Positions 13,022 to 64,000 of a DNA stretch of 64,000 nt are shown piece by piece. Each line of letters starts with the position of its first letter. Positions within the stretch are counted from its first letter, which is position 1. Source of the DNA: Amoebophrya sp. A120 (Eukaryota > Protista > Dinoflagellata). A program made the position numbers and the translations under genes. The DNA lies in contig CAJINV010000001.1 in the NCBI GenBank assembly GCA_905178155.1, forward strand, positions 12,073,832-12,137,831, read 5' to 3'. A model generated the notes under the pieces. That model was given only the letters and a program-made list of their open reading frames with translations. It was not told where the DNA came from and ran no database searches.

Positions 13022-16000
13022 ATGCCTCGACGTAGCCAAGAACCCTGCGCGGAACCAGAGGGTGAGGACGGACAGTTCGACGATGAGGAGTTTGTTGGCA
13101 ATGACAACCGAAATTTGCAACGCGGACACCACAACGAAAATCCAACAACTACCGGAGCCGCAAGTGGGAGCCAAGCGACGTCGCGCTCCCAGCACCCGCC
13201 GACCCCGGAAAAGCCGATGCTGACCCTCGGCGCAATGTCGGACGATTCAGACTCCGAGGACGACGAGGAAAGGAGTGGCAACGGAACGAGTTCGTTGTCC
13301 AGCACCATCGGCTATCCTGTGCAAAAGTATCGTACTCGTAGTAATCGTAGTCATGCATTACAAATCTTTATCCCAAGGCAAAACAGCATGACAAATTCCA
13401 TTTGTCATGCTGAGCGAATTTGTATTGCAATTACTACTAGTACGATACTTTTGCAGTTCATATCGGCGATCCGCGTTCACGGCAGCGGCAGAACCGCGAG
13501 CAGAGGCGGTCGTCGAGAAACACGCGGAGGTCGCGGCGACATGAAGACGGACAGCAAGTTGCGCGCACGCGGAGCCGCGGGGACAAGCGCGCGGAGTGGC
13601 AGGTCTTGCACGAGCAAGAAGCCGCACGCTTAGCGAAAGAAGCACAGAAGGCGTTCCACAAGACTGCGTGCAAAGTTTTCCAAGCACTCATGCTCGCTTC
13701 CTGCCTGGTTTTGCTATCCGTCCTCGCCTACCACCAGTACCTGCAGCTGCGACAACAGGCCGCTCACGGGGAGAATTCTTTACCCGGCAGCGGTTCGGCA
13801 GTATTTCCAGTGGGGAAGGGCAGAAGCGGCGCGCGGGAGCAAGCGCGAAGTATCGTCTTGGACGATCGCAGCGACGTTGGCAGTGACACTGACGACCCGC
13901 AAGAACGGGGAGTACAGAATTCCAAGCGCGAAAAGATTCGGCTGTCGCGGAAATTCGAAGAGCGGTCGCGCGGTTTCTCTACGGATCATGTCACTCGCCG
14001 CGCATCATCGTCCTCGACGGGGTCTTCCCGCCTTCCGCCCGACCGACACAGCGGCCGCAACTCCCGCAGCAAGGGTGGGGCGACGCGACGCCACTCCTCC
14101 CCCGGTACTGGTCGCCGCCCGTCCCGGCGCAGTGGTCGCGGCTCGGCGAACTGGAAGCGCGGCGCGTCCGACGGTGCAGCTGGTACTACCACGGTCGCGT
14201 TGGTAAATGGAACTATTGCCGGCGCTTCCGGGACGAGACCGCCACTAGATGACGGCGCGGCCTCCAGTACGGACGGAGGATGCAACAGTGCGGATGACTA
14301 CTCTTCTACAGAAGAGGACGACGACACAACTGACTCGGACGTGGACTCGGCCTTTGCTGGCGCCCAGAATGAGGACGCGTCCGACCTGGAGCTGAACACG
14401 ACCGCGACCAGCCGCCGGACGAGCAATCGCGGCAACTGCAACATGTACGCGAACAAGAACAAGCGGCCCCGGCGTACGTCGAAGAAGTACGTGCACTCAA
14501 AGACGAAAAACTCGGTCGTCCACAACTACTTCACCATTCAGCACATGAGCGACGAGGCCGGACGCTACTTCTTCGGGAACGCCGCACGAGCGGCGGGTTT
14601 CGGAGGCGGGGGCGGTAGTGCGGGTGCGCAATCATCTTCGCAGGCCGCGCCAAACTTCCAGTACACCCAGCAGCCAGGGTCGTCCACGGGACGAAAGAAC
14701 GCTGATGAACACGACAGAAGTGCAACGCCGGGCGATGGTGGCGTGGACGCGGGCGTCCCAACAAGAACACCCTCCAGTGGAGCACAACAACATGACAGTT
14801 CGTCAGTTGTGTCCTCTTCCGTAGGTGGCAACAGTGAAGATGTGCTAGCACGGAGGAATCAGCAGGAGCTTTCGGGAGTTCAGAATATGCGGGCTAGCAC
14901 GCCCGGAGGTGCTACTCCTTCGCAATCAGAAGTAGTCGAGTCGGGTTCAGGGAACGGGGAGACATTCTTTTCGGCCGCAAGCTCGTCGATCGGCGGTGAC
15001 GACCAAAGTGGATCCGGGCGAGGGTCGCCAGCCTTGGAAGACCAGATTTCGGACACGTCGGATGCACGGAACAAAAAGAAGCGCGCACAGCAACTGGAGA
15101 AGCAGCTGCAACTCGCGCTACAGCTCGGAGATACGTCCAACCAGCCGGCACGGACGAGCGCAACCTTGCTGCCCCTTGCGGATTATGTTCCTGGGTACTT
15201 CAGCTTAATACTTCTTGCGCCATAGGTTTAGATAGATAGAAGTAGAAGATGAAAAACGCATCTGCAGAATCCATCCATGATCGCTAAGATTCATATGTTC
15301 ACTTTTGGTTTCGACTTTTTTCCGCCCAACAAGCTAAAGCGACAGCTAAAGCAGATGCACTCTTCTTTCATGAACACTAAAGTAATTCCGAACCTCAACA
15401 GAAACGGCAGCAACGAGGTTGTCATGCCTGCTCCTGGAACACACAACTTCACGCATTCGGGCGCAATCGTTCCCGTAGTTGTTGCTCAGCAGACTGCTGA
15501 GAGTCTCGGATCTTCGTCCGCAGCCCCAGCACTGCGAAGCGGCCAGCTGGCCCTGGAAGACGCACCGCCAGCAGCTCCGCCGTCTCCCGTGGGAGTGCTA
15601 GATTCCGCGAACCCGCCGCAGCCGCCAGCATCTCCGGTGGGGATACTTGACACCTCTGGTGGATCTGCAAGCTCTCAACGACCAAATGCAGGCAGCTTGC
15701 AGCATTCAGCACATCTCTTCTCATCAATCCCGCCGCAACCGAGTGCGCCACTTCCACTCGTCGATCCCGCTGAGGTTCCCGTTCCGCTTTCCCGGCCAGG
15801 GGAGGTGGATGCTGATTTGGTTGAGACGAGCGATGCCGCTGCGGATAAAGAGCCAGCTGATACTTCTAACACCAACAAAGCGGATCTATCTAGGGAAGCT
15901 GCTCGTGGTCCAGAGGATGGCACTAGTAGTACCGGACTGGAGGAGGTGCCGTCCGCTACTCCGCTTCTTGACCAGGCCGCACCTTCGGAAGGCGAGGGAA

Positions 16001-19000: not shown

Positions 19001-20772
19001 TTTTTAGGAACAGCACAGACCACGATGAAACTGACGTGGGACAGAAGCAAGATACACCCGGCAGCTCTAGCACCGGCCCTGCGTCCGCCTTTGCACCGCA
19101 GCAGGAAGCGATGCCCCCTCCGCTGTGGGCCGGAAGTGCCGCGAGCAAGGTCCGCAGTGGTCACCGACTGGACCAGAACACCTACTGCGTGACCGGCGAT
19201 GCCTCGCCGGACCAGTCCCGCGAAGAGTTGCGTGTGCCGAATAAAGCACCGTCGCCAGAGAAGATCCCCTTTGTCGGCGCCAGCAGTATCAATAACTTCA
19301 ATCCGCCGGAAGTGCTGTCGAAGACGAGAAGCAAGAAGCGCTCCACGGGGGTCGACATCGAGCAACTCGCCAAAATCGATTTCTCCGCGGCGAACAGTGC
19401 CATCCTGGGCACGTCGCCGGAGCAAATTTCCTTCTGGAAGACGCTGCTGTTAGAGGACCCCCAGGAGTGGGACTCGCTACCGGCCGTCTCCTATCAAATG
19501 TAAAAATGTCTGGGTCTGGAAGAATGCATGTTTGTCATGCTTGTCTGGCATGACTCTTAAATCTGTCATGCACGTTACCCAAGAGCTGCGTTTTTCTGTG
19601 ATGCAGAAACGCAGTTTGTCATGCAGAATAGGCAACACCTACACCTAGAAGCTCAGAAACTTGTCATGCTGAGCCAGCATTTGTGGCCTCATCATGAGAC
19701 GCCGCCCAGCATCACAAGTTTCCAGATCCAGACATTTTTACATTTGATATCTCCAAACCGGGGCTGAAGCAGAGTCAGCTGTACGATCGACTGCTCTACT
19801 ATGGAAGCGTCAGGTTTGAAATCGTCAAAGTTCAAATAATTCGTAATGCATAAAATGCGACACAAAAAGTGACTCTATTGCAGAGGACCCACGAGAGGCA
19901 GATTATAGTCCTGGCAAGGGTCAAAAATTGGCCTGCTAACTAGCATGACAGAAAGCAGCTCTTTTGCTCTAAACCGCATGACAGACTCGCTTCCAGGATT
20001 GGGAAAATTTGTCATGCACCGACTACAAACTGTAGGTCTAACTGGTATCCGTTTTATGCATGACAAACTATTTCAACTTTGACGATTTCAAACCTGACAC
20101 ATCCATATCTACCAGTGCCACCAAAAGGAAACCGAGCGGTTTTTCCGCATGGAGCCGAAGAAGCAGGAAACGGGGGCCGCGGGCATCCTGAATGCGCTGT
20201 TCCAGGTGGGGGGCGCGGGCGCCCACCGCAAACCGGGGAGCGAAAGAACCTGCACCATGGTAGACGCGCGGGGGCTGCCAAAACCACTGAAAAATTGGGT
20301 TCCGCTCAACGAACAGTACGATGCCTCGTTCACCGTGCCGATTGGCCACGACCAAGCGATACTCGAACCCTCCGGCCTGGGTCACGATCACCAGTACAAA
20401 ACTAAGTGGAACATGCAGATCGAGCGGAACCCACTCACAGGAGGCAGTATTGTTCTGTTGATTTTCCTATTTTGGTTTCAAAGACGTTTGTAAGTAACTT
20501 CTGCTGTGAATCTGAAGGCGTTTTCAAGAGCAACGATAGGTATCAATGAAGGACCACAATCATGATCATGCATAGGCAAACCCAAACGGATGAAAAGTTT
20601 TTTCCGCGAAATCACAGGTCCACGCGTTGTTGTGAAGCGGGAGAGCGTCAGCGAAACCGGAGACCGCAAGGAAAAGGCGTACACTTTGGCACAGCCCCAA
20701 GAAGCCGCGCGCTTGGCGCAGAAGCTCAGCATTCTTCTGAATAACGAATATAGGAATCTCCAGGGTATGTAA
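13022..20772 (+). CDS. Very large low-complexity hypothetical protein with one N-proximal transmembrane segment; multi-exon
   Basis: ORFs 12953, 13606, 15277, 20149 and 20590 join in frame through non-canonical inserts (13313, 19492, 19800) and GT-AG introns 15195-15401 and 20447-20575. Hydrophobic ALMLASCLVLLSVLAY near 13684-13731. No recognised domain; both ends uncertain. Confidence 0.65.
13313..13462. mobile_element. Family-B introner (150 bp), TSD TCGGC
   Basis: TAT...ATA; inner IR tgcaaaagtatcgtact/agtacgatacttttgca; TCGGC at 13308-13312 and 13463-13467; removal gives STIG-DPRS in frame with ORF 13606. Confidence 0.92.
19492..19749. mobile_element. Family-A introner (258 bp), TSD TCTCC
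   Basis: TIR tatcaaatgtaaaaatgtctgggtctggaa / ttccagatccagacatttttacatttgata; TCTCC on both sides; removal eliminates the stop at 19503 (LPAVS-KPGLK). Confidence 0.93.
19800..20107. mobile_element. Family-G introner (308 bp), TSD TCTAC
   Basis: TIR tatggaagcgtcaggtttgaaatcgtcaaagtt / aactttgacgatttcaaacctgacacatccata; TCTAC at 19795-19799 and 20108-20112; removal gives RLLY-QCHQ in frame with ORF 20149. Confidence 0.93.
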
Positions 20773-22435: not shown

Positions 22436-25400
22436 ATGAGTAGGGCACAGAACAACACTCTTTCCGGGCCGTGTTCCAGCCGACGGCTGGCCGCGCACAC
22501 TTGTTGTCCAGTACAACAACTGTGGCCATTTTTACTACTTGTCTTCCTCGTCTTCGCACCAATGCCAACAGTCGCGCAGCAAGCTCTGACCATCGAGGAG
22601 GTGTCCTCCCGATCGCCGTACGTCAACGCTTTTCCCGTCCACTTGCGGTTGACGTGGCAAACCAACATTCCGACCACCAGTTTGGACGTGAAGTGCTGCG
22701 TGACTGCTGTGAAGGGCACCATGGACAGCTCGCGGACCGAGCTGTACCTGGACCTGCGCACCGCCAACAACGGCGTGTCCTTTGACGCCGGGCAAGCGAA
22801 CTGGCACTTTCTGCCCCGGATCCCCTACTACCTGAGCGACAACACCACCCAGGCCACCGCGTTCCAACACTGTGGGTTGCTGGACCCGAGCATCGAGCTG
22901 TACTTCGACAGCGACAACATCCGGCAACTGCGGAATCCCGAGATCTCGGTGTACCAGTTCACGATCCCCGGGTCGCTGATTACGGCGAACAACCCGACCC
23001 TGGTCTTCGACTTGCGGAACGCGGCGAACCCGCTGGAGGCAAACGCAGACACGGCCGAATTCGCCTCCATCACCGTGTCGCACTCCAATCTGCGCTCCGC
23101 GAGCGGGCGGCGGCAGAACGTGTACCACTGGGCTTCGATGGAGGTGCTGAAGTTTCAGGTGCAGCCGAACTTCTACGCGCAAACTTCCGCCACGTTGGAG
23201 CTCACCTTTCGGTTGCGGGGGTTGAAACAAAGGAAAAGACTGCCGGGCAACAGCTGGATCTCCCTGAACGCGCCGATCGGCTGGAGGTTTTCCCTGCAGT
23301 CGCAGATCGTGGTGTACCAGCCGGACCTCACGAGCGACAGTTTTCCAGTTTTGTTCACCGACTGCGGGAGGATCGGAAATGTGTGCACGGGCGGGTACCT
23401 GGGCGCGCAGTTGTCGGCGACGTACGAGTACAACAACCGCGATTGGGAGTCGCAATTGCGGAGCCTCGTGTTTCCGAACTCTCCGCACGTCGACGCGGCG
23501 ACGTATTTCGACTACAGTCAGAACACCAGCCAGGTGTACGTCCTTGGTCAGGCGGCCGGGAACGAGGTGGTTACGTACGTGAATACGACCTCCTGGGACA
23601 GCTTGCCTATCAAATGTAAAAATGTCTGGGTCTGGAAAATTGCGAGATTTGTCATGCAGATTTTCCATGACCCATGAGGTCTGGAATGCGGGGCCTAGCA
23701 TGACAGAGTCTGTGAGGTCTCTGCCATGCCTATCCCGCATGAGAAACTACCTCCCAACTTGGTCGAAAGTGGACAGCTTTTGGCACTCATGCAACACAGA
23801 TTTTGACTTTTGCACTATTTGGATTTAGCATGACTTTTCCAGACCCAGACATTTTTGCATTTGATATTGCCCATGGCGGACCCAACCGCATGGTCGGCGG
23901 TGCCGGCGCAGGCCCGGTACAAGCGGGCGGTGATTCAGGATGTGAACACGGGGGATTTGCAGTTCTCGGTGGACGACACGGTGCTGCTGCGCGTCAGGGT
24001 GACGAACGTGGAATCTCCCGGGAACAAGGCAAGCAACGCTGCGGACGAGTTGGCGATGAACACGTGGACCTTTCACTACGGGTTGATCCAGTCCACCGCA
24101 CTGGACAAGAGACTGGCCACGGTCACGGTACGGGCGCGCGACGTGATGCTGGAGGCGATGGAGGTGAGTGTGAAGGTGAAAGGCTTTCAGTCGTCCGCAA
24201 CGACGCCCGATGCCTTCACCATCTCCTCGGCCCCCTATGCCTCACTGGTGCAGCTGGTTTTCACCGTGTCAAAAGCAATCGCAACGAGCAGCAGAAAGAA
24301 CTACTTCTATCTGTGGACGCCAGCGGTTTCTGAGCAAGGAAACACGTGGAAATTTTCCAGCAGCAATTGCAAGGGCGATCTCGGGGTACTGAACTGCTAC
24401 AATCTGGATTTTGCCTCGGCGGGAACGAATTCGTTGGTCCATTCGCTGGCGACGAGCTACTTCACGGTCTTTGGCGAAACAGTTTTAGATACGACGTCTG
24501 GAGGAAGTGCGTTGCAGTTTTCTATGTTCGCGACAAGCCCGAAACCTGGGTACAGTTCAAATGCGAATTGGCGGCTCTCTTTGTCCGAGGATGGGACGAC
24601 TTTCGCGAAAATTTTGAATCACGCCAACGGGGTTTCGCACGCGAGTCTGACGCTCGTCGAGCTCCAGGATTTCAACGCGGTCAATTTGAATTTCATCTCG
24701 ATGCACACCAGTGCCGTCACCCCGCCCCCACTGTCGTTCGCGCCGAAGTTTAGCGTGTCCGCGATCCCGGCCATTCTCACCACCAGCACCATTGTCGAGT
24801 TCCAGTTCCAGCTGCGCAAGTTGGACTTGGCCAGAACGAGTGCGCGGGCGACGTCAGTAGAAGCCACCATGACGGGATTGCGGCTCACGGGCCCGTGTGA
24901 AATCAAATCCTACAAAAATGGATTCAACTTAGCCAAGGTGGAAACCGGAATCGCCGATTCCGGGCACACGCTTTTTATTCCAATGGCGCACGTAAAATTG
25001 AGCAGCAACAACGATGCTAGGATTATGGTAGAAGTTGAGGTGTGCGCCAGTGCTTTGGCGCCAGCGAATGCAGTGTCTCTTGGGCAACCGGATTTTGGAG
25101 CAGCAGTGGGAACTGGAAACGCGTTTTTGTACACAAACGCGGAGGTGGCGGGGAAGTGGAATCTAGAAGTGATCGGAACGGGCAACGCGGTCCTGGATCT
25201 CGCGACGGTCGCACATTTTTCCGTTGCGACGCACGCCTGGGACCAGCGGTCCTCTTTTTCGGCCATTTCGGAGAACAGGGTAGTCTTCCAAATCTACCTA
25301 CCCGCCACGACGTCGCTAGACCCACTCACGTTCACGATCCGCGTCAACGGCTTGACCCTCTCTGCCTGCACCCTGGACCGGGTCCCCGGATCCGTGTCCG

Positions 25401-34169: not shown

Positions 34170-37100
34170 ATGTACGTAGTAAAACGGGACGGAACGCGCG
34201 AAAAGGTCGCGTTCGACAAAATCACGCAACGGCTACACAAGCTTTGCTTTGGTTTGAACAAGGAGTACCTCGTCCCGGAAAAAATCGCGCAAAAAGTGGT
34301 CGAAGGCGTTTACGATGGCGTCCACACGTGCGACTTGGACAACCTGGCCGCGGAAACCTGTGCGTACATGTCCCAGATGCACCCGGATTTCAGCCTACTG
34401 GCCGCCAGGATAGCGATCAGCAACCTCCAAAAAATGACAAGTCCATCGTAAAAACTACTTTTAAATGTTTTTTGTCCTTTACGTTTTTTTCGTATTTGAT
34501 ATGCTTGACTGATTTTCATCTCCTGATGACGTTGAGGTTTCGACATTGAAAAAACAATAGATCGCGCTGCTCTATTGCTTGGCTCAATCAACAAACCCAC
34601 AGGTTCGAAACCACCTGCAAGACGCTATTTTTCTACACGGACGAAGGGGGCCGGGATTGCGCACTGCTTTCGAAGGAGTACTTTGATTTCTGCAGTCAGC
34701 ACTGGGACCAAATCCAAGGCGCATTGAAATACGAGCGGGATTTCACCTACGACTACTTTGGTTTCAAGACTCTGGAGCGGAGCTACTTGTTGAGGGTGGA
34801 CGGCAAGATCGTCGAGAGACCACAGCATTTGATTATGCGCTGCGCGCTGGGGATTCACATGGGCGACATCGAGTCTGCATTGGAGACTTACGACTGGATG
34901 AGTCAGAAGTTCTTCACGCACGCCACTCCAACGCTTTTTAACGCAGGTATGAGCGTATAGGTCTACCATCTAAGTTTTTCACTAAAGAACAATGGAAGGA
35001 AGGAAAAAAATAGAAAGTCGCCCACGGAAAGTCAAGGAACAATTAAACTGTGCCCAAGTGCCTTCTAGACCTGCTTGCTGCGAATTTATGTCACCAGGTA
35101 CACCGAAGAACCAGATGTCTTCCTGTTTCCTTCTTTCCATGTATCCACAGTAAATTTCCCGTACACGTACAACTGCGGCCTCTGCATGACAAAACTTGGC
35201 ATCGATCCTAGTTTAGCATGACAAGTCTTCAGCTCCAAATTGGTAGAATTTGTGATGCATCTTGTACATGTACGGGAAATTTGTATTGCATACCATGGTC
35301 TCCGACAGTATAGATGGGATCTACGATACCCTGAAACGGTGCGCGAAAATATCAAAGTCTGCCGGCGGCATCGGCGTAGCGATTTCGAATGTGCGAGCAA
35401 GCGGAAGCTACATCCGGGGAACCAACGGTTACAGCAATGGATTAGTCCCGATGCTCCGAGTTTTCAACGACACGGCCCGATACGTCGACCAGGGCGGGGG
35501 CAGGAGAAAAGGCGCGTTTGCGGTACTACTATGCATACTCTAGATGAAGTTTTGACAAAACTACGAAAAGTTTGTAGGTCGAATTGTTTATGCTGGATCG
35601 ACAATTTTTTTCGGAGTGAAATTCCCAAGACTGTTTTCCACGAACAGATGTACCTCGAGCCGTGGCACGCCGATGTGTTTGACTTCCTGGAATTGAAGAA
35701 GAACCACGGGAAGGAGGAAAACCGAGCGCGAGACTTGTTCTACGCACTCTGGATTCCCGATTTGTTCATGAAGCGCGTCATGGATGCCGGGGACTGGACG
35801 CTTTTTTGCCCCGATGAGACCAGACACCCGGAGACGAAGAAAACTCTGCAAGACTTGTGGGGCCCGGAGTTCGAGGAAAGATACGTGGAACTGGAGAAAG
35901 CAGGTACTTACAAAAGTAGCTACATGCGACGTGCAACCTGCTGCACAATCTTTGCCCTTGCCTGGACCTGGTGCTTGGGCCCTCTTCTGTCTTCACTATC
36001 AGTCGTGACTGTGCACGACGACTAGTAGTACAACAAGTAGGAAAAAAAAGCATCAGCATAATTTCCTCAACTCGACCAGGTAAGGGCCGCAAGACCATCC
36101 CCGCGCAGTCACTTTGGAACAAGATCCTGGAATCTCAAATGGAGACCGGTGTTCCATACATGTGCTACAAGGACCTATGCATTGCAAAAGTAACGTACTA
36201 GCATAAATTGCATTACAAATTTTCTCAAGAAGAAAAGTGGAATTTGTAATGCTGTTTTACCTTTTGAGGAAGATTTGTCATGCATATTTGCAATTAGTAC
36301 AAGTACGATACGTTTGCACAGCATAGGACCACGCTAACAGCAAGTCCAACCAGCAAAACCTGGGGACGATCCGTATGGCGTTCTCAAACGTTACATTCTC
36401 AACTGTTACATGGTTTGTCATGCGAAATTGCCTTCAGAAGCGACACCATCAAGCTGCTTCGCATGACAAATTCTCAGAGGGCCAAATAGGGTGATAATCG
36501 GCGCCAAGTCTGTCATGCAAGACGCGCAAGATCTCCCCTATTACTTTTGCCATTCTTGCATTACAAATTTCATGTAACAGTTGAGAGTGTAACGTTTGAG
36601 AACGCCATAATCCGCTGTTCCAATCTGTGCACGGAAATCTTCGAGTACACCAGTCCCGACGAGGTGGCCGTGTGCAACCTAGCCAGTATTGCGCTGAACA
36701 TGTTTACCAAGGAAGAGGCCGTCGCTGCCGCGCAGGAGGGCGGGTCCAGTTCGAGCTCGAAGGTGCCGATACAGGAGAAGTACGACTTCGAAAAACTGAA
36801 GCTTATTTCCAAAATGGTCACGAAAAACCTGAACAAGGTGATTGACGTTAATTACTACCCCGTGGAGGCCGCGGAGAAGTCGAACAGGAGGCACCGGCCA
36901 ATTGGTATCGGCGTTCAGGGATTGGCGGACGCTTTCATGAAGCTCAAGTACCTATCTATCTTCGATCGAGTTGTTTTCGTCTTTCTGACTCTACGGTTCG
37001 TGTTTGTTAAAACGCGAGCGCGGCACGATTTTTTTCGGGTTGGTTTTGATTGTTGTGGACAGAACAATACAGCAGGCCGGCTTTTTAGCTCGTGGTCACT

Positions 37101-42600: not shown

Positions 42601-45328
42601 AGAAGGAGAAGCTCACCGGGGCACAGTTGTTTGAAAATTTGAAGAGGCTGCTCATCAAGAAGTATCGGTCCCTGTCCCTCGCGTGGAAAACTGCCTTCGA
42701 CGTGCAGGGCCGAGGCCACTGCGGGTCGCAGCACTTTGCTGCGGTGTGCCGCGGGTTGGGCTTCGAGGGGGCGAATAGCGTATGGCGGGAGGTGGTGCAG
42801 TGGCGCTCAAAGAGCGGTTTGTTGACCTACGCGGATCTCGACCCCGAGGGTGCGCAACTGATCTACGAGTTAAAAGCCAGGATGGTTGACAAGTAAGTAC
42901 ATGCTTGCAATAGACGAAAATTGTAAAGTTATGCGTGAGACTGCTCCTTCGTTCTAGAAGTATCGTGGAAGATGTTTATGTTGATCAACATGATTTTTGA
43001 TCAACATGATTTTTGATCAACACGCTCGTGCACCCCAATAAACAAGGTATCGCGACTTCGTCACTGCCTGGGTCGTCGGTATCGATATGGATGGCAGCAA
43101 CCGCGTTTCTGAGGCCGACTTTGTGAATACGGTATCTAGTGGCAAATTTGGTGACTTTTCGGAAGTGGAATCGCGGCAGCTGTTCCGTTTACTGCGCTCT
43201 GCGGACAAGAAGTTCCTGCAGCTCCACGATATCGACGTCAAAGCGGGTCAACAGCTGATGGACGGCAATCTGCCTCCCTATGTGGACCAAATGAAGGCGG
43301 AAGCGAGGAAGCAGCTCAGTCGCGGCATGAGCCGGGAAAGGAGAACCGAGTTTTTGGTCAGGCAGAATTCGCACGAGGTATCTTGTTATCATTCACCTGA
43401 TCGTGTCATGAGCCCATAAGCGCGAGTACCTTCTTCTTCTGTGTCTCTCTGCCTTTTGTTTTCGCTGTGTTGATGAAGTATCTATTGAATGTTGTCGCTG
43501 GATTCCATTCTATTTGCACTAGATCCACGCCTTCCGGACGGAGTTTGCGCAGCACAAGCGGCAGCAGCTGAACGCTAAGGATGAACGGCGGCAGAGCCGG
43601 GACATGGGGGCGAGTTCCAAGGAGGAGTTCCTGAGCTTTCTGAAGCGCAAGTACGGAAACCTGCCCCGCGCCTGGCGCACGGCCTTCGACACGGACGGCA
43701 ACGGGAAAGTTTCGCAGCAGGAGTTCTTCAGTGTCTGTCGACACCTGAACGCCTTTATCGGCGACGTGAGCAAGTTGTTTTCCGAGTTCGACGTGGACCA
43801 GAGCGGCATTTTGTCCCTCGCGGAGGTCGACCCGGCGGCGTGGCGGATTTTGTCCAATTTTGAGGACAAGTGTCTCGAGGCGGTGGCTGCTTCCTCCTCG
43901 CGGGGGGCGGTAGTGGTCCAGCCCCCCTCTGCGTCCACGACGATTGGCGGTGCGCAATCCGGGTCCGACGCGTCGGAGCCAAGCGGTGCAGCTGTTCCCC
44001 GTGGGCGCACGGGAGCGTTGGCGAAGTGGTGGAGCGTGTTCTTCGCCGATCAGGATTTTGCGGAGCACGACCTCCTGCGCCGTATGCAGGACAACAGCGC
44101 GGTGACGGCGACAATTCTGAAGATCGATTTCACCAGGTTCCAGGCCATCTGTGCGAAGGATTTGAATTTGCACAACGAAGTGACGGTCAGGAAGCTGTTT
44201 TCCTACTTTGCAAAGGAGGAGGGATCCACGTTTCTGACCGAAACGGATTTTAAGGCGATGGACATCCCGAAAATGCGGGACATGCGCGAGCGCAAGCGTC
44301 GTAGCAGCAACGCATTTGGGGGCGGCGCGCGATCTCGGAGCACGTCGCTCCAAAGCTCAAAGCAGGCGAGCGCCAGTCCATCCGAGAACGAGGGAGCCAG
44401 CAACGTCGTGAGTCCTGCGGTCCCGGAGGAGGGGATTGTCGGTAGTACAGCCGGGGCCGCGGCCACCGAAGTGTTGAAGGCCGCAAAGCCGGAAGAAGCG
44501 AGCAAGTCGGAGGAAGAAACAGATGCATATCACAAGAAAAAAGTGTTACAGTTACACATTTGTTGGAGTTTCTGCATCACAAATTTTCTCTGTGTGGCAG
44601 GGAAAACTTGTAATGCGAAGATCATTAGGGAAAACAGGAAGGAAACGAGGCTCCCAAGCATTTCCTGCATGAGAAAGGTTATCTGTGTTGCTGGTCTTGC
44701 AACACAATGTGTAACTGTAACACTTTTTTCTTGCGATACTGCAGATGCCGACCACAGCAGCAGCACAAGCGCCGAGGCAAGTGGAGGTTCCAGCACGGAG
44801 CCGGAACCTGCAGCGGATCAGGTCGGTCTTGCAAAAAAGAATGACGCCGATGTTCTTGGAGCGAGTGCCAGTGAGGAAGAAGATCCTATCTTGGGAGCCT
44901 CACAGGAAACCGCAGAAGAGGAGGAAGTAACGAAACCAGCAGGAGAACAGGATCCAAGTGCTGCTACAATAGACAAGGCTGAAGAATCTTCTGCTCCGGA
45001 GGGCGGACAGGAAATTATCATTCCTACTCGATCTGCAGCGAAAGATGACGAAGAGCCGCCAGCAGCAGTAGAGGCTGCGACCACCACGACAACGTCCGAC
45101 ATTGACGAGTTTTGCGTGACCTTCGTCGAGGCGAATGAGGGTGACTGCAGCCGCGCGTGGGGCAACCTCTTCGGCACCGACGAGGATGTCGAGGAAGCCA
45201 AGTTTGTCGACTTTTGCAAGGCCGTGCGGGCGAAGGGGTTCCAGGGCAACTTGAAGCTTCTGTGGACCAAGTTCGGTGGGACGGATACACTCTGCCCCGG
45301 TGACATGGAAGAAAAGCTGTTCTTCTGA
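39673..45328 (+). CDS. Coiled-coil plus multiple EF-hand-like repeat protein; multi-exon
   Basis: Repeated units KKYRSLSLAWKTAFDVQGRG, DMDGSNRVSEADF, KRKYGNLPRAWRTAFDTDGNGKVSQQEF and FDVDQSGILSLAE; N-terminal heptad-rich exons; three introners and several GT-AG introns. Not every internal junction was verified. Confidence 0.7.
39793..40054. mobile_element. Family-A introner (262 bp), TSD GCAAA
   Basis: Family-A TIRs with the right end mutated to AAA; GCAAA on both sides; removal gives KDSK-KWTEL. Confidence 0.92.
40092..40241. mobile_element. Family-B introner (150 bp), TSD TTTTC
   Basis: tatcctgtgcaaaagtatcgcact...agtacgatgcttttgcatttcata; removal gives SVFS-ELQQKDQLE. Confidence 0.92.
42981..43022. 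repeat. 16-bp tandem repeat (about 2.6 copies) in an intron
   Basis: ttgatcaacatgattt repeated at 42981, 42997 and 43013. Confidence 0.8.
44528..44738. mobile_element. Family-E introner (211 bp), TSD ATGCA/CTGCA, stop-free in frame
   Basis: 33-bp TIR tatcacaagaaaaaagtgttacagttacacatt with 1 mismatch; AT-rich island inside ORF 43604; element plus TSD is 216 nt. Confidence 0.9.
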
Positions 45329-47230: not shown

Positions 47231-47326
47231 TTCACCCCCGTTGCCGCAGGCCGGGAGCTCGCGCTGGTGCCCTGCCCTCCCAAGAAGTGGCAACACATTC
47301 ATGGGCCCCGCGCGGCTGAAGTACAT

Positions 47327-51800: not shown

Positions 51801-54346
51801 TTTGGTTTTCTTTGTCCGGTGTGGTTCCTAGGGGAGGGGGCCACGTGGTGTGGTTTGGCTCATGGGGCCGCCTCTTCGTGGCCATGAGCCAAACCCCTCG
51901 GGCCCCCGCTCCTTTGCATTTGCCGGGGGCATCGCGCAGCGGCCCCGCTTCGGGAAATCAGGCACGCGCGACGCCGGGGCGTTTTGGTTTTCCAACCCAC
52001 ACCCGCGGCCCCGGGCGGCTAATGATGAGGGTAGTCCCGGCGGTAATTTCCGGGGTTAATCTCACCACAACGAAATCGGGAAGGTTTCGCTGGTTTTGAA
52101 ATTAAACCAAAAATCAGCCCTCAGATTAGAATATGAATTAGACCACAAATTACCCCCAAAACCCACGAAATTAAACTCCGCCCGGAAAACAATCACTCCG
52201 CCGGGCCACTTGGTGCTCAGTCGCTCGGTGCCGTTGGTCATTGGTTGTCTTGCTTTTTCTCGACACGCCGCCCGCCAGCAGTTCCCGCCCACTTGTGTTT
52301 TTTGTGTCTTTGGGTGGACTCCCTCCGGCCGCTGCCCTTTTCAATTTGCCCCGAAGATTGGGGGGCGGCGTTCTGGAAACCCACAAACAGAAAGCCCGCC
52401 GGGGCAGTGTTGCGGCCCCCGTTTTGTTTTGGTGGGGGCCTCCCGTGCGCAGGCTCTTTCAGCCGGCCCCGGGGTCTTTCTTCTGTGCCGGGCCACCCTT
52501 CGGCGCCTTGCCCGGCGCGCGCCTCCCCTCATGAGGGGCGCAGGGGGCCCTACAGGGTGGCGCCCGTGGTGGCGATGTGCCTTCGAAAATATGGCGGTAC
52601 CCCCGGCGCGCCTCCTAATCTGGCCCCTTCGGCGCCTGCTCCCTTTCGCGTTGGGGATTAGCCACCATTCAGCCAGGAATTAACGAAATAGCTTGCCACG
52701 GGCCGGCTGCCTGACGCAGGCAGAGGCCGGCCAGCGGCAGCCGGCACGCACGCACCGCAGGCAGAGGGAGACGGTTGGCACGCAGGCAGAGGCCGGCCAG
52801 CGGCAGCCGGTTGGCACGCAGGCAGAGGCCGGCCAGCGGCAGCCGGCAGGCAGAGGCTAGAGTCGGCCTGGCAGGCCGGAGCGGGGCAAGCAGCTGGCGC
52901 GGGGTTGTCGAAAGCCGGCGCGCGAACGCGCAGGCACAACGCCCCCACTGACATCGGGCCCCCTCTCCCTGTCTCCTTGCAGTTTACTCAGTCACCGACG
53001 TACCGGGCGCAACCGACAAACCCAAGCCCAGGCGAGCCCAGCAGGGCTCGCCCCGAGGCTTGTTTAATATTAAAGAAGAGTTACGACCCACTAGCATCCC
53101 TAAAATCCTTTTGCCGGAGCCGGACGAACAAAAAGTATAAGTCGACGAAAATGCATAGTGTATTATACGGTGTGCAGTAGATGAAGTGGGACGTAGTTGA
53201 AACTGAAAGTAAGAACGATGAACAATCGAAGTGAAGTATTAACGGTGAAGAAACTACATCTACTCGTTTTACCAATCTGTCATAGGTGAAGCCGCACTTC
53301 AAGGTCCTGGTCCCCATCATTCCAGAGCAGCCGAACGGCCCTTCAGGGGCCTCGCGAGCTGCCATAGCCATGTCTGCTTACGGGACCAACAACCCTGGCT
53401 CCAAACTGCTGGTCCTCTCCGACGCCGATATATCACAAGAAAAAAGTGTAAGTATACACTTCTGTGTGCAGCAACATCACAAACTTGCTCTGCATACCGG
53501 AGAAAACTTGCAATTTAGAGTTCATGAGAAAATAAACCACGTCTGAAGCTAGGCTCCTCGTGAGCGTATCCGGCATGACAGAGCTTATCTGTGTTGCCTG
53601 GAATGCACCACCATGAGCAACCGAATGGCATTTTTTTCTTTGCATAAACCATCGAGCGCATGGACTATTTTAGCTTGAGCGGAAATCGAGCGACCTTCAA
53701 ACAGTCCGATCCGTATGCGGTCTTTAGAAGGCCTCCACCGATCACGCCTCCGATCGGCGGTGGAAATCAGAATCCCTCCCAACCGGCCTCGAGCCCCCCG
53801 CATTCGCAGCCGGACTGGAATTACAGTGCTGGGCAGTACGGAGTACACCACGAGGAGGTACCGGTGGGAATCGTCCTGGGGCTGGTATTTGGGTTCTACC
53901 TGCTGCTGGGCTTGGGTATTTGGGGCTGCGTGTGCTGGACCACGAAAAGAAACCGCGAAAAAGGCGAGCGAGAACTCGCGGAGCAGAAGAAGTTGGCGGA
54001 AGAGAATCGGCACTTGCTCTACAACCAGTACCACACCATGAACGCTTTCAGCAACCCCTACGAAAACGGCTTCCATCAGGCTGCTCAACAAGAAACCACC
54101 CCTGGATCGACAGATGTTGGCGCCACAAACAGTGGAGCGGGAGGACCAAAAAGTCAAAGCAACATCCATACCTTTGGCACGCTCCAGGGCGGCGGCGTAA
54201 GTGGGGTGCAGCACCAACAGCAGGCCGCGCAGCAACCGCTTGCACAGATGTACGGGGGTTCGAACAACAACATTTACGGCTTCAACAACAGCGCACTGCA
54301 ACAACCCGCGATCATCAACTACGGCGCTACCGATCACTATGCGTGA
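48879..54346 (+). CDS. Membrane-anchored peptidase S51 (dipeptidase E/cyanophycinase)-like protein; multi-exon
   Basis: Signal-like LAGLLFLLVTDATVA; VLNLGGG, FAYSAGAVVIG and LKLLGPYQ|VKPHF across GT-AG intron 50289-53285; C-terminal TM VGIVLGLVFGFYLLLGLGIWGCVCW. Other probable introns 49272-49387, 49711-49972 and the insert at 53431. Confidence 0.6.
50373..50662. repeat. Foldback-like structure: ccttaag units on the left, cttaagg units on the right
   Basis: About 4 copies of aact(c)nttaag at 50373-50422 and about 8 reverse-complement-like ct(t)taaggg units at 50563-50662. Confidence 0.7.
50770..51470. repeat. GC-rich minisatellite, ~37-bp unit ggcaggtaggacagaggccagcggcagccggcccgcc
   Basis: About 9 near-identical units at 51060-51400 with degenerate flanks; a related block lies at 52700-52880. 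Confidence 0.88.
52700..52880. repeat. Second block of the ggccagcggcagccgg minisatellite
   Basis: gcaggcagaggccggccagcggcagccgg occurs three times. Confidence 0.8.
53431..53646. mobile_element. Decayed family-E introner (216 bp)
   Basis: Left end tatcacaagaaaaaagtgt is identical to the 44528 copy; shared internal aaaacttg and ttatctgtgttgc; right end catttttttctttgcata; TSD not recognisable, but removal of 221 nt joins ORFs 53286 and 53660. Confidence 0.75.
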
Positions 54347-55242
54347 AGCAAGCATTTTTTGTTACTCGCTCCTAGTGTTCTGTTTCTTTCTGCTGCTGCA
54401 TAGAGGAGAACATGGTAGAACAGGACGCTCAACGTCAACAAACTGACAAGGGGTTAAACGTTGAATGCCATAAAAATGAAATATCATGTTCATGTTTTGG
54501 AGATGAAGATGTTTACTAGGAGTTTTTGAGTTTTTGTAAACAGTGATTCCTCGCACTGGTTCTCATGCCGCGATGCCCGCTCGGCCTCGGACGATAGTAC
54601 TTGAGAATCATAGTCGCATGATTGAAAAAAGATAACTATGGGAGTCTCAAGATGAAGGATAATTTGGAATGCAAATCAATTTGACGGTGAAGATCCGTCG
54701 CGACCTAAGTTTAGCATAATCACACCGACTGTAATCAACCTTATAACGCTATCTAGGACCTATTACGCACTATAAGCCGAACACAGACGCCCACAGACCG
54801 ATAGATATTTCGGATACAGAAAAACAGCCTCTGCTTGGTCCGTCAGCGAGAATGCTCGGCGCTGCGTTTCTCGCACGCACGCGCATTAGTCACCTTGCAT
54901 CATCAGGAGGTGGAGGTACACGTTGATTTACAATTTTGGAATAGATATATAAATGAGTAGATGCATCATGCAGGACAAATTTATTACGCGTGAACCAGAA
55001 ACGACGCAAAGAGTCTGAGAATACATCGGTATTGGTTGAGCAGTTCGAAAATTTTGAGAAAATTCGGAGTTCCCCCGCTAGGACGGCAAACGCTTACGCG
55101 TAGGGTAGTTTAATTTGTTGCTCGTGCCGGCTTCCGCTTTTGTGCCCTGTGACGCAGTTGGTTTTCCTTGGCTTCTACTCTTCATCTTACTGTTACTTTG
55201 TCAGTTCGCACTTTTGGTTGGAGAAAAAATTTCAACTTAATC

Positions 55243-56954: not shown

Positions 56955-57779
56955 ATATCGCCCTCCGGGCGCGACCTTCATACAATTAACGATGCCCTTC
57001 CGGATCTTGTACTTCAATTTAAGTAAGCTACGAGTGCAGAAAAAATGGCACTGACTCGAGTGGAAAATGTTATCTCAGGTTCATTACACCTGTGCACCCA
57101 GGGTCGGTGTCGCCGCAAGCGCGTTGGCACAGAACCCGAAGTCATATGTGAAGGTGGACACATCACATACGTCTCGCATTGCGGCCACGATACGCATGGT
57201 GAGAGAGTGGCAGCACCGCTGTAGAAAAGATAGACACAGACGCGCACGTAGTTTTGTGGAAGCAAGAATAAACTGCGAGGACGTCGACGCTTGCGACGTG
57301 AGTAGTAAGTCTACTGAATCTCCTGTTTGGCAGAGGCTCTGCCACAAGTCGAGCGAGGATTTGGATGTACCCTAGAGCTAGACGCAGCTTTCTGGGCCGT
57401 TCTGTGTCTTTCATGGAAAATTACCTGCAGATCACACAGCCGTTGAGAACGAAATGCAGATGGAAGGATGGATCTCGCAAAAATCTATGCAAATGATGGA
57501 TCCTCGAACAAGAAATGAAATAAATGCTCAGAAAGATCGATGAGTCGTGCTGGTGGTAACCACGAACGCAGGCATCGACGACGAGAGGTACTGTGGTGAA
57601 GCTAATGAAAGGTGCCAATTTTCGGTATGGGTTTCTACTTCTGCAGAGAACGTTGAGCATTGAGAAACGAACAATCAGCAGCATTCACCTCAAGTGCGTA
57701 GTACTTCCGTGTTTGTGTACGATCATCGATACGAACTACTACTGAAATTATAGTTCTCCATTTACTTGTACAAAACTAA

Positions 57780-59300
<1,521 letters not shown>

Positions 59301-60166
59301 GACGGAAGGCGTGAAGATTATTCTCCGCGACAGTCACGAAAGCGAAAGCCAGCAAACGACCAGAACGACCTATAATTTCGAAAGAGAAAAGACAGCAGAA
59401 TCTACATCACTCAAACGACAAAAGCCACAGGAGTCGGGCATTATCGAGACGACAACGATATCTCATGTCCCGGAGACCACGACAGAACATCGATGTAGTT
59501 CAAAAGCACTACTTGATGAATCTTTGAAAGTTCGACGTGTTTTGACACTAGTTCTTGAGTTTATCAGTGTGAACAGCAACGGCAGAAGCACAACGATACG
59601 AACGATGGGCGTGTGGCTACTTCTGCGTTCCAACTCCGAAGGCATTCAGGTCGTGTTTATTGCACGTAAATGCCGCGCACGAGTACGTACGTGGCGTTGC
59701 AGAATGATTTGATCGCGCTTTCTTTTTTTCGTTTTGACTTTTTTCTTCTTTTCGCCTTACCTTCACGTCGACATTTTCGGCACCAAATATCAAAGAGAGT
59801 CTCGCAAAATGCTTCGTAGGAGCGCCTGCATCGCAAAGTTCGTTGCAGCATGTTATGACCAGAGAGGAGCGTTTTTGAGTGTCGACCCGCAAAATGCAAT
59901 TTGGAGAAAGAAGGAAAACCAAGTGACAGAGTCTTTCACTACGAGCGCCTCGCCTCGTCTAGTTTCGTCAAATTTGGTAAATTGCATTGTGGACAATAAA
60001 GTTGCGGTTCTTGCATTCTGGCATTTGTCTGAATCTCAAACGCAAACATTGCGGAAGAAACTCAGTATCTGATTCTGGGGTTACTTAGATCATGGTCTCA
60101 CGTCCGCGTTGCGTTTGCGCTCCTGGAGGTTCGTTGTAGCTTGTTGCGGCCACATATCAGCTCGAT

Positions 60167-63100
60167 ATGGCTGATTCGGCGAGTGTAACGTCGACGGTGA
60201 CGGCGTCAGCGCTGAACACGCCTCGGGGGAAACACGATCCGAATAAACCCGACTATGAGGTGCAGACGCACTCTGGCGTTCCGAAGGAAAAGAAAAAAGT
60301 CGTCAACTATGCGGTGGGGACTACAGGTAATGCTAGCTCGACTAGCGAGATTTGCTCCTACAAGGACGAAATACAGGCCTTGCCCTTGTATCCACACGTT
60401 GACATCATGAAGTAGGCCGAGATGAAGTGAGTTCAAAAGAGATTTTTTGTATCGTTTCACATCACAACATTGACATTTCCAAAAAAAACAGTCGGGCACC
60501 GTGAGACCTTCGGCGACAACCTGCGACTCAGTGCAGGGTACCCGCGGATTTTCTTCCAGACCACGTATCAAATGTAAAAATGTCTGGGTCTGGAAGAATG
60601 CAACTTGTGATGCGGATTCTGGAACAGGCCAAAAATCTGTATTGCGTAGTCAGCAAATTGTGCCAGATTTTTGTCTCCAGAAGTGGGCATTTGTCATGCG
60701 GAATAGGCATGGAGAAGCTCAGCTGCCACAGAGTTTGTCATGCTCTGTGTGCATTCCAGACCTTTTTGTAGATGTAAAAAATGCATGACACATGTCTGAT
60801 TTCTACCAGACCCAGACATTTTTGCATTTGATACCACAACGCAGGTGACTATAGAGCTGATGGTGGAGCGGCCGGCCGCGGTGATCTGCCAGTGCGTGGA
60901 GGTGCCAGACTCGGCACGGAAGCACGACGCGTACCAGTACGCGGATGCGAGTTTCGAGAAGTCACAGACGGTGACGATACGGACCCTAACCCGGGAAAGG
61001 GACCTGCTGATTCAGCGTCTGAGGAAGAAGATGGAAAAGCCCGGGCTCGACGACGCGCAGGACTCCGATGAGGACGAGGAAGTTCTGAAGCGCGACGTCA
61101 CGGACACGGGGCGGGAGAAGCCCTACGTCAAGCCGATCAGGTTTGAGGCCAACCTGCACGGCTCGCACGCCCGGCCGAAGTTTTACGAGCAGTTTCACTT
61201 CGCCACGCCCATGCTGGTCCGCTTCCACGCCGGGCACGTGCCGAAGACGCTGCCCCTCGTCGGGCTCAAGGCCGACGGGCAGTACGAGTTCTACGCGACG
61301 GTGATTGACGACTCGCTCGTTCCGTTCTACCGGAAGATGGTAAACGAGACCATTCTCGCTTCCTGGATGGTGCTCACCGCCTGGGAGGTGGATATGGCCT
61401 CCGGGACGAACAAGAAGAACCAGAAGCAGAGCGAGGGGCTCGTGTCCAAAGCCGGGCACCAGCGGATCAGCAACATCAAAAAAGCCTGCACGGAAACGTC
61501 CACGAAGTTCCCGTTCGCAGCGGACCAGCGCTACCCGTCCCACCCCCTGCACACGGAGCTGTCCTCACTACCGCAGCCCTGGAACCTGGAGATGATGTCC
61601 GAGAGTTTGCATTTCTACGTGAAGCACGGCCGGGATTTGAGTCCAGCGAGCAAGGCGAAAAACAAGGACGCGGACGACGACCTGCCGCCCGGGTTTTTCT
61701 CGCGGAAGGGCGTTGATCCGGAGCAGCTAACGACGCTGGTGTCGTTTGCGCGACTGCGGTTCGAGACGTTGTCGAAGCACCCGAAGTTCTTGGACATCAG
61801 CTTCGTGCCCAACGGGGTACGGTTTCGGCTCGACCGCCCGAACTGCATGGTCTACTGGGTCCCGGTCAACCCGGCTCGGGACGAGATGGCGCAGAGGGTC
61901 CGGGCACAGAACGCGACTGGAGGGGTCCTCGCAAATAAGAGCGCTTCATCAAGTACATCGGCTCTGGTCCCCCCGACCGCGAGTTCGGTGGCTGCAAAAA
62001 AGATGAACCAGACACATTTAAACGAGCACGACTTCTCTAATACAGGGATGGCGCGAACAAGACGAAACGACGAACTGGATTCACTCATATCATCCCCCGG
62101 TTATGAGACGACAGAATGTCCTTTGCTCTCCCTCCCCCCCTCATTTGATGTCATGCGAGTTTAAAAGTTGTGATGCAGATGAAGCTGCTACGAAACTCTT
62201 GTGATGCTGTCTCAAAGACGGTGCCGTTCAAATCAGGGAAAGAGACTCACTTGTGCCCCCTCATACCCGTGGACGGTCGGACAAGAACGTGTTCGATGAG
62301 CTACTGGAGCAGGACGAGGAGGAGAAGGACCGCGCCGCTGCCGCGGACGACGCGGAGAACGCAAAGTCGACCGCAAACAAAGAGGACGCCGGCTCGCAGG
62401 CTACGAGCCCCTCCGCCGTCTCCTCCTCGCCGGCTGCCCCCTCGGCGCCGGCCGCACCGGCGCCCGTGCCCTACAAGGCCCTGGATCCGAGACTGAAGCC
62501 CTACGCACTCGCGGCCGCGGGCGATCTGGCGGGGACCGGCGCCCCCGACAGCGACGACGAATTTGCCGTGAATAAAAGCCTATCAAATGCAAAAATGTAT
62601 GGGTCTGGAGGAATGCAACCTGTGATGCTGCGTTTGGATTCCAAAAAAATCTGTATTGCATGAGCAGCAAATAAGGGAGTGCAATTTTTGCTACGGGAAG
62701 AGGGCACTTGTTATGCGGAATAGGCATCAAGAAGCCCTCAAAAAATCTCTGATGCTAGGGCATGCATCACAGACGTCACGGCTCATTTAAAACTTGCATG
62801 ACAAGTCTCAGAATCTTCCAGACCCAGACATTTTTGCAGTGCATAAAGCCCGAAGGAGCAGGCCCCCGACCAGCACTTCGAAGCGAGTCTGATCGTCCGC
62901 GATAGGGCGATCGCGGCGGGGCACTACCTAAACGTGACCGGGGAGAAGGGGTTCATCACCCTCCCGCCCGCCTTCCAGGGCCGTCCGCTCGACTTTGTCG
63001 CGGAAACCATCCCCGACACGACGCGAGCGAAGTCCGCGGTGGAGGTGCAGCGACTCGGGCCCGGCAGAGACAATTTGAAGGACGTAAAGATCCGGAAAAT

Positions 63101-64000
63101 GTTTGATCCGTTGTTCTCCTCTCTCCGGCCGCGCTCCATGATGCCAAAACCGTACCGCCTCTTCTACCAGCAGCCGCAAGTGCCGGAAGAAGAGCTGGAA
63201 GCCACGATATCCTCGCCGTTGCGCACCAGAACTTCTTCCGGAGGTGTTGGCGGGGGACCAGCAGCAGCCCCCGGTGCAGCTGCCAGCAAGCTGTCCCCGT
63301 TTTCAACATCTTCGCCGTTCGGCAGTCGGCGCGCCACGAGGAATTCAATTTCCGTGAGCGGCGCCGGCCCCGCGGCCGCAGACAAAAATACAACTCCCGC
63401 GGGGAAGTTTATCGACCGAAAAGACGCCAAAGGGTATTTGGACACCCCGCAAAGCGCGTACGCCCCGGGCGCCGCGGTGCACTTTGAGAAGACGCCGCAA
63501 AACTTGCAGCGGTTCGCGCTGCGCCGCACCGACATCGTGAGTGGCACGCCGGATGCGGAGCTGGTGCAGACCTTCGGCCCCGACGTCGTCCCGGAGGTCT
63601 TTCCCTACTCGCGGAAACTCGTGTCGGTGTCCGAGTCGCTGAAGACCAGCTACGGCCGTCCGCCGGAGCACATCAAGATGCAAAGCAGCTTGGACGTGGA
63701 GCTGCAGGAGCCGCGGCCCTTCGTACCACAACATACGGTCATCACGGACGAAAATCGGTACGAAAACGACGGTATGCATGGCAAAAGTATCGTACTAGTA
63801 TAAATCGCATTACAAATTTGCTCAGCATGAGAAATGCAATTTTTCATGCTGTTTTACCTTGGAACGGAAATTTGTAATGCATGACTGCGATTACTACCAG
63901 TACGATACTTTTGCACAGGACAGACGGCGAGGACCCGAACGCGGTGAAAAAGGCGAAGCCCTACTACTACCAGCAGCTGCAGTATGGGAGTGTCAGGATC
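60167..64000 (+). CDS. Hypothetical protein, 3' end outside the window; carries five introners
   Basis: GT-AG intron 60327-60491 and inserts at 60566, 62102, 62581 and 63773 join ORFs 60167, 60845, 62253 and 62934 in frame; strong GC3 bias; no recognised domain. Confidence 0.7.
60566..60833. mobile_element. Family-A introner (268 bp), TSD CCACG/CCACA
   Basis: Family-A TIRs; removal of 273 nt gives RIFFQTT-TQVTIEL. Confidence 0.92.
62102..62265. mobile_element. Degenerate family-F introner (164 bp), TSD CCGGT/CCCGT
   Basis: tatgag...ctcata ends; internal tgtcatgc and two tgtgatgc; removal of 169 nt joins ORFs 60845 and 62253. Confidence 0.78.
62581..62845. mobile_element. Family-A introner (265 bp), TSD AAGCC
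   Basis: Family-A TIRs; closely similar to the 39793 copy; removal gives VNKS-PKEQ in frame with ORF 62934. Confidence 0.93.
63773..63922. mobile_element. Family-B introner (150 bp), TSD GACGG, inverted orientation
   Basis: tatgcatggcaaaagtatcgtact...agtacgatacttttgcacaggaca; removal gives END-GEDPN. Confidence 0.92.
63983..64000. mobile_element. Probable left end of another family-G introner, truncated by the window
   Basis: tatgggagtgtcagg resembles the TIRs of the 19800 element (tatggaagcgtcagg and tatggatgtgtcagg). Confidence 0.55.

Follow-up and report, generated by a model that had tools for sequence, protein, structure and literature searches.

Amoebophrya has tens of thousands of non-canonical introns. 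A 64,000-nt stretch of the genome of Amoebophrya sp. A120 (contig CAJINV010000001.1, positions 12,073,832 to 12,137,831; below, the window) carries several families of such introns, or introners, and the initial annotation of this stretch pointed out one internal motif, GCATNACA, recurring in both orientations in families that it considered otherwise unrelated. The motif was proposed to act in cis as a signal, common to these families, that one trans factor recognises, either a transposase or an intron-marking protein, and perhaps the recognition code of the introns. Our analysis suggests that the motif probably represents DNA-level sites for mobilising non-autonomous TAT…ATA elements that double as introns, rather than a splicing code.

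Occurrence of the motif and the site model

In the window, GCATNACA has 58 hits, while 6.29±2.52 are expected from 100 dinucleotide shuffles, none of which reached 58. The bulk of them (51 of 58) are inside 16 TAT…ATA elements totalling 3,520 nt (Table 1), and the seven outside hits (3964, 4714, 15420, 17881, 22079, 46269, 59132) correspond to the chance level. All motif copies listed in the initial annotation are present, six of them in the family A element at 19492 and the others, with the named variants, in families B to G. Three hits are also present in the decayed copy at 1376, one in that at 53431 and three in that at 62102. The motif had also been described as rare in GT-AG introns and exons, with two of the seven outside hits named. 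Eight GT-AG introns seen as joints of RNA-like contigs (4,229 nt) have a single exact hit, and the seven short ones among them have no matrix site. By RNA-like we mean contigs that also skip GT-AG introns, no source run being on record as RNA.

Related loci were collected by a metagenome scan with the family A end pattern, which gave at least 152 stretches in at least 147 loci (L001-L147, 604 kb after merging). They contain the same families as the window, with identity up to ~94% and no overlap with it, and family A is over-represented among them, its end pattern being the query. Elements were identified by end pairing and target duplication only, with a TAT start required and the motif unused, yielding 352 elements (341 from the loci and 11 from the window); the same search on shuffled sequence yielded none. 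The exact motif is present in 344 of the 352 elements, with 1,101 hits versus 29 (at most 40) in 20 composition-matched dinucleotide shuffles, so the predicted enrichment over a matched background is borne out. Of the hits outside the called elements, most sit in decayed or partial element copies; a further 211 hits in 528 kb (0.4 per kb) have no assignment, and the clusters of them inspected resemble further elements.

The motif as originally quoted is present, but the full site, H-GCA(T/A)(G/C/T)ACA-RR-Y, is longer and more degenerate. One helical turn upstream of it there are a weak TGC and alternating AT/GC flanks. Most elements have 4-6 sites, and L073:4890-5016 is the sole element of the 352 without a matrix site.

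Kinship of the families

The window elements start with TAT and end with ATA, except for two decayed ends, and are flanked by 5-bp duplications; 335 of the 352 elements begin with TATC or TATG (the TAT being imposed by the search). Terminal inverted repeats (TIRs) are ~28-58 bp long and in most families contain an A-run, missing from the TATGG group. Among 242 TIR pairs found without a duplication filter, the target-site duplication (TSD) is exactly 5 bp in 180 and 6 bp in none, and no target-sequence preference is seen.

The 352 elements fall into 14 loose clusters, families B and D sharing one of them. With the motif masked, 16 of 91 comparisons of terminal repeats reach z 3 and the repeats form a linked network, while 8 of 91 comparisons of interiors reach this level. 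As the ends and the 5-bp TSD are shared and the terminal repeats interlinked, the families are, judging by sequence, one related group, the interiors of which have mostly diverged past alignment with the motif kept. To call the families otherwise unrelated was therefore an overstatement.

Conservation of the motif

Conservation was analyzed in 18 subfamilies of at least five copies, comprising 290 of the 352 elements. The seven fixed bases of the motif (the core) have a pairwise diversity of 0.069 and its free position N one of 0.281, compared with 0.246 for the remaining interior and 0.124 for the TIRs. In each of the 18 subfamilies the core is less diverse than the interior, and in 16 of 18 it is also less diverse than the TIRs. 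In separate data on six window elements, none of the 39 variants listed (40 of 64 rows) is at the fixed bases (5.9 expected) and one is at N. The expectation that the motif is more conserved than its neighbours is thus confirmed in every subfamily, N being free, and decay at the rate of the rest of the element, which had been named as grounds for abandoning the idea, is contradicted by the low core diversity and by the lack of variants at the fixed bases.

Shared and private (single-copy) variants behave differently. In the three largest subfamilies (133 copies), private and shared variant events number, respectively, 48 and 25 in the core, 74 and 62 in the TIRs, and 221 and 507 in the interior (p=6e-9 for the contrast between core and interior). 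Per column, variants found in at least three copies amount to 0.14 in the core, 0.27 in the TIRs and 1.01 in the interior, and single-copy variants to 0.53, 0.44 and 0.57. Inherited variants are depleted ~7-fold at the motif and single-copy changes ~1.6-fold, the latter similarly to the terminal repeats; corrected for opportunity and saturation, the private rates are 1.4% in the core, 1.1% in the TIRs and 2.3% in the interior. The two TSD copies, a clock starting at insertion, differ by 3.2-3.6% per site, with similar mismatch in the window and in the loci.

We infer that donor lineages are recorded in the shared variants and the time since insertion in the single-copy ones; their comparison points, indirectly, to selection at the propagation step. 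Donor selection is favoured because a model with splicing only would hardly purge inherited breaks while tolerating private ones.

The reported persistence of the motif in decayed copies holds in so far as the motif is there, but it can be explained by the redundancy of 4-7 sites per element. Moreover, a search with the motif masked gave 130 decayed full-length copies, in which divergence of the core grows from 0.05 to 0.32 with repeat divergence and exceeds that of the interior in the oldest well-filled bin, where wrong subfamily assignment may inflate it.

Spacing and helical phase of the sites

Direct pairs of sites with a spacing of 30-33 nt were seen in 10 of 11 family representatives, whereas the null gave 2.2 on average and 7 at most in 2,000 trials; at the level of subfamilies, 22 of 24 have such a pair. 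Among periods of 7-18 nt, the best one is 10.4-10.5 nt both for all pairs (0.47) and for opposite pairs (0.56); it persists with the 32-nt pairs removed, and none of 150 random layouts matches it. At 11.0 nt the opposite-pair signal is 0.06. The helical period is ~10.5 for B-DNA and ~11 for A-form RNA, and we infer from the observed one that proteins occupy one face of B-DNA.

Sites are also positioned relative to the element ends. All 33 outward-facing first sites are located 32-33 nt (12 cases), 40-44 nt (18) or 52-55 nt (3) from the end, with none between, although these ends are not independent (24 subfamilies, 8 of family A).

Removal of the elements from RNA

In RNA-like contigs, all six elements of 44001-64000, the decayed element F and the one at 53431 among them, are skipped along with 5 nt, and deletion of an element together with one duplication restores the reading frame in 195 of 222 cases. 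If a single register is valid, the upstream cut lies 1 nt before TAT and the downstream one 4 nt after ATA, giving an intron that begins with N-TAT. The resulting N-TATCC(T) start of several families resembles the U12 donor. The tabulated starts of A120 family 1 (GT, CT, AT, TT), as far as they are listed, agree with a cut 1 nt before TAT. Minor-spliceosome RNAs are reported as absent in the text of PMC7789003.

Two long non-canonical introns, both skipped in the same single RNA-like contig of one run, bear on the role of the motif. The first (46622-48536; 1,915 nt, CT…GT) is GC-rich and has no motif site and no target duplication, with an inverted repeat ~25 nt inside each end. The second (55217-56986; 1,770 nt, GT…AT) has two weak sites, tandem repeats (~112 nt) in its interior and, likewise ~25 nt inside each end, a strong inverted repeat; through its joint, the 3' region of one gene is connected to sequence immediately preceding the next gene. 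Near-terminal pairing is strong in both introns. Since a site-free and a weak-site intron are skipped, even if in one contig and one run, paired ends rather than the motif seem to guide removal.

The suggestion that the motif is the recognition code of the introns is not supported: it is changed in single copies about as often as the terminal repeats, its sites are preserved no better in must-splice copies than elsewhere, and an intron without sites is removed in one RNA-like contig.

A probable role in mobilisation

That the families share a cis signal read by a common trans factor, as proposed initially, is supported by the enrichment over matched background and by conservation above that of the neighbouring positions. 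Of the two kinds of factor then considered, the evidence favours a transposase, while marking of introns is unsupported, there being no strand bias. In the mechanism that we consider probable, the mobilising machinery would bind the motif in double-stranded DNA, and the copies with intact sites would mostly be those that spread. Units of two direct sites, three turns apart, would be set 32-33, 40-44 or 52-55 nt from the end, and the bound proteins would bend or wrap the 110-320-bp element, so that its two ends pair for transposition. Splicing would be a separate process, using the paired ends and the donor-like N-TAT start. Chances are about even that the putative site binder is a transposase, while a host architectural cofactor in this role is unlikely. 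The mobiliser itself is probably one transposase of the integrase type, which a host cofactor may assist.

Several observations weigh against this explanation. Private core changes still occur at ~0.6 of the interior rate (p=0.046) and have only a weak relation to copy age (Spearman 0.14, p=0.056), which leaves room for some protection after insertion; in the oldest tenth of copies private changes reach 3.0% in the core, 3.4% in the TIRs and 7.9% in the interior. Transitions make up 38% of private versus 50% of shared changes, and because of this shortage assembly errors in the loci may inflate the private class, although the TSD mismatch does not differ between window and loci. Site redundancy masks any rule by which at least one site is needed. 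The site-free element L073:4890-5016 is one of only three among the 195 that can be read through without splicing: its indels sum to +18 nt and it is readable inside a 746-codon frame, possibly having been exonised. Local RNA stems between opposite sites are predicted in the elements B at 13313, C at 36374, E at 44528 and G at 19800, and in part of A at 19492. As for the phase, pairs in the same orientation and more than 36 nt apart have their peak at 16 rather than 10.5 nt, and a null model that keeps the 32-nt units reaches at most 0.42, above the observed 0.40, in one of two family sets.

The last group of contrary points concerns the mobiliser. Neither a transposase nor an integrase was found by Pfam in 356 open reading frames (ORFs; of 982 in total, those of at least 150 aa with codon score not strongly negative), and no autonomous element with the same ends was found in 0.67 Mb, less than 1% of the published genome size. 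In the text of PMC7789003, no transposase is reported in A120.

A lattice of 16 nt was considered separately; it suits same-orientation pairs beyond 36 nt, but opposite pairs give 0.26 at this period versus 0.56 at 10.5 nt, and it was rejected.

Long TIR pairs up to 12 kb likewise gave no autonomous candidate. At L055:4187-16168 there is a ~12-kb span with long near-identical inverted arms, which is an inverted duplication or an assembly artefact. The family A end pattern had no match in viral contigs, and the motif-pair patterns matched 17 viral and 3 prokaryotic stretches, none of them with TIR and TSD or with similarity to the elements. An integrase-type mobiliser is favoured by family 38 of A120, which supplement file 8 of PMC12130899 lists as Ginger, with a 5-bp TSD and TA/TA termini, and which is described in the text of the same paper as carrying integrase-like ORFs.

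Alternative explanations

The strongest competitor adds a second use of the same sites: a DNA-binding factor, an active or domesticated transposase, would read the phased array for two purposes, mobilisation of the element and its co-transcriptional marking for a spliceosome without U1, one or two intact sites being sufficient for splicing. A transposase-derived protein would then copy the element and hand both its ends to this spliceosome, most introns of the genome being defined by a DNA code instead of RNA splice sites. Strand symmetry and the B-DNA phase fit this explanation equally well, and the residual deficit of private changes in the core speaks for it, as does the presence of at least one matrix site in all 192 copies that must be spliced, the sole site-free element being compatible with read-through. 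U1 is reported, in the part of PMC7789003 compared, as undetected in both strains. On the other hand, the 1,915-nt and 1,770-nt introns are skipped with no site or weak sites, and sites are broken to a similar extent in must-splice copies (192 of 675 with a mismatch, 28%) and elsewhere (118 of 497, 24%). The core/interior ratio of private changes is also similar, 0.57 in coding and 0.65 in non-coding-like contexts, and the read-through case is a single copy from a two-site family that has 6 of its 14 sites broken in any case. We consider the double use unlikely on balance, both as a role of the sites and as a general way of defining these introns.

Less probable still is a host chromatin signal, by which the phased motif would position a packaging or silencing protein (a nucleosome, DVNP or an AP2-like factor), carriers being tolerated or accessible. 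The 10.5-nt phase and the alternating AT/GC flanks would suit such a protein, and the motif resembles the apicomplexan TGCATGCA octamer. However, the motif shows no excess outside the window elements (7 versus ~6), private changes are less depleted than shared ones, unlike what host-level selection would produce, and fixed distances from the element ends point to an end-related function. The ApiAP2-type palindrome was rejected as the same site, as TGCATGCA is rare, with one occurrence in the window, 15 in the loci and two in elements.

A splicing code at the RNA level, in which an RNA-binding protein or a small nuclear RNA reads the motif in the transcript, single-stranded or as stems of opposite copies, is slightly less likely again. 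Both orientations do occur in most elements, and the predicted stems listed above would serve it. It would require, however, that transcribed strands differ. Transcription direction was assigned by a codon model for 239 of the 352 elements (149 of 153 neighbours concordant), and both insertion orientations relative to transcription occur; motif mismatch is 4.6% in the sense and 4.2% in the opposite orientation (p=0.44), so strand specificity is not seen and a mark on single-stranded RNA is unlikely. Families with all sites facing one way (c3, c8) still insert both ways, and the sense strand lacks GCATNACA in 45 of the 239 elements and TGTNATGC in 40. Moreover, element F, with (-) sites only, is unable to pair them and yet is removed exactly, the N bases of mirror sites do not covary toward pairing, and there is no signal at the A-form period of 11 nt.

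Finally, a functionless relic of common ancestry or internal duplication, though in line with the kinship of families in ends, TSD length, TIR network and some masked-interior similarity, is highly improbable, as the seven fixed bases are kept around a free N in all 18 subfamilies, which refutes it unless there is a sequence-specific mutation shield, and the spacing is kept though interiors are mostly unalignable (8 of 91 masked pairs).

Elements of the window

The elements have the features known from miniature inverted-repeat transposable elements, being short, non-coding and high-copy, with TIR and TSD (Table 1). Their summed depth is 1e4-1e5 versus 43, that of the family A element at 19492 being very high in the DNA-like run X5, while in the raw-read runs X8-X10 the elements are almost uncovered. 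In the reductase gene, with its elements of families D, B and C, 307 nt are not attributable to exact cuts.

Table 1. Elements of the window with their exact motif hits; nt skipped refer to RNA-like contigs of runs X1 and X2.
Element	Positions	Motif hits (strand)	Remarks
A, decayed	1376..1697	1516 (-), 1591 (-), 1644 (+)	Flanked by GCGTT/GCGTC; similar to other A copies when masked (z 8-13)
B, 150 nt	13313..13462	13355 (+), 13386 (+), 13403 (-)	5-bp TSD; degenerate site 13421 (-)
A, 258 nt	19492..19749	19533, 19564, 19597, 19617, 19662 (-); 19709 (+)	
G, 308 nt	19800..20107	19943, 19976, 20058 (+); 20010 (-)	RNA-like contig piece starts at 20108
A, 259 nt	23608..23866	23650 (-), 23698 (+)	Also degenerate sites
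D, 151 nt	35142..35292	35184, 35216 (+); 35251 (-)	Clusters with B; ribonucleotide reductase gene
B, 150 nt	36176..36325	36210 (+), 36245 (-), 36276 (-)	
C, 236 nt	36374..36609	36416 (-), 36461 (+), 36511 (-), 36558 (+)	RNA-like contig piece starts at 36610
A, 262 nt	39793..40054	39834, 39919, 39958 (-); 39974, 40006 (+)	
B, 150 nt	40092..40241	40165 (+), 40200 (-)	Also degenerate sites
E, 211 nt	44528..44738	44574 (+), 44609 (-)	216 nt skipped, X1 and X2
E, decayed	53431..53646	53573 (+)	221 nt skipped, one X2 contig
A, 268 nt	60566..60833	60606, 60692, 60736 (-); 60783 (+)	273 nt skipped, X1 and X2
F, decayed, 164 nt	62102..62265	62149, 62169, 62200 (-)	Weak end pairing; 169 nt skipped, X1 and X2
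A, 265 nt	62581..62845	62621, 62709 (-); 62764, 62796 (+)	270 nt skipped, X1 and X2
B, 150 nt	63773..63922	63807 (+), 63873 (-)	Also degenerate sites; 155 nt skipped, X1 and X2

Essential genes (ribonucleotide reductase, RNA polymerase largest subunit) are interrupted by several elements (window 34603-37122 and locus L068).

Other features of the window include two near-perfect palindromes without the exact motif, at 2045-2113 (34-nt arms) and 56623-56758 (67-nt arms), and a 2,997-nt GT-AG intron (50287-53283) with inverted CCCCTTAAG-type repeat arrays (50378-50661) and GC-rich tandem repeats, the arrays probably being another kind of inserted element. A 34-nt stretch at 56949-56982 is matched by ~750 raw reads of run X10 that run into unrelated sequence on both sides; it has no Rfam match, and an Rfam search of the whole window gave none either.

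Comparison with known elements

The elements themselves are already known. The A120 introners of Farhat et al. 2021 (PMC7789003), as described in the text, have the same inverted repeats starting with TAT, the same A-run some ten bases from the start, short direct repeats on either side, a mean size of ~240 nt, location in co-oriented genes and exact removal from RNA. Direct repeats of 3-5 nt are published there, while here the TSD is uniformly 5 bp, and the published motifs are terminal only: the text names no internal motif or spacing rule (figures S19-S25 being outside the comparison). It distinguishes ~1,954 introner families in A120 and argues against general mobilisation by transposases.

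In the portions of Gozashti et al. 2025 (PMC12130899) compared, family 38 of A120 shares the 5-bp TSD, the TA/TA termini and TIRs with our elements, and the lengths of A120 families (~106, 149, 209, 234, 256-260, 278, 305-321) match those observed here. By its description, family 38 differs in being 808-810 bp long, with the integrase-like ORFs. Most other A120 families are listed as 'Unknown' with TSD calls of 2-6, among 56 of 58 rows.

IS3EU/GingerRoot elements (PMC10045372, PMC6839031; parts compared), whose transposase is an integrase-related DDE enzyme, also have TA…TA termini and no target-sequence preference. Their TSD is 6 bp, which none of the 242 pairs fit, and GingerRoot TIRs are 100-150 bp long, no subterminal motif being described in these parts. 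Because of the 6-bp duplications, membership in this group is not claimed.

In the hAT element Hermes, subterminal repeats bound by BED domains (PMC10368747, in the part compared) are likewise short sites that recur inside the TIRs in either orientation, with an asymmetry between the ends, and their exact phasing to the end is described as crucial. Several short sites inside the TIRs at a fixed phase to the ends are found in our elements as well. The Hermes sites are 4 bp long and belong to a hAT element, while here they are 8-12 bp long, paired three turns apart, and fill a mini-element that doubles as an intron, so the likeness would be one of working mode.

The motif inside the elements, the grammar of its spacing and the signs of selection at propagation appear new: no earlier description was found in the literature and supplements searched (figures, some supplement files and external sequence sets being outside the scope), including the consulted parts of the dinoflagellate introner preprint 10.1101/2020.10.14.339549 and of PMC11282704, PMC9860276 and PMC11453091. 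Searches of the literature for the motif strings returned unrelated papers only.

Implications for Amoebophrya introns

Two problems are separated by these results, the spreading of the elements, which would depend on the motif at the DNA level, and their splicing, which would depend on the paired ends. Should the double use prove true after all, it would be a new way of defining introns. The sharing of one motif, one spacing rule, one end signature and a 5-bp TSD by at least 11 family groups would reduce the ~1,954 families to one system, probably with one mobiliser. The motif may serve as a bait for finding the protein, and the signature as a means of finding the autonomous element.

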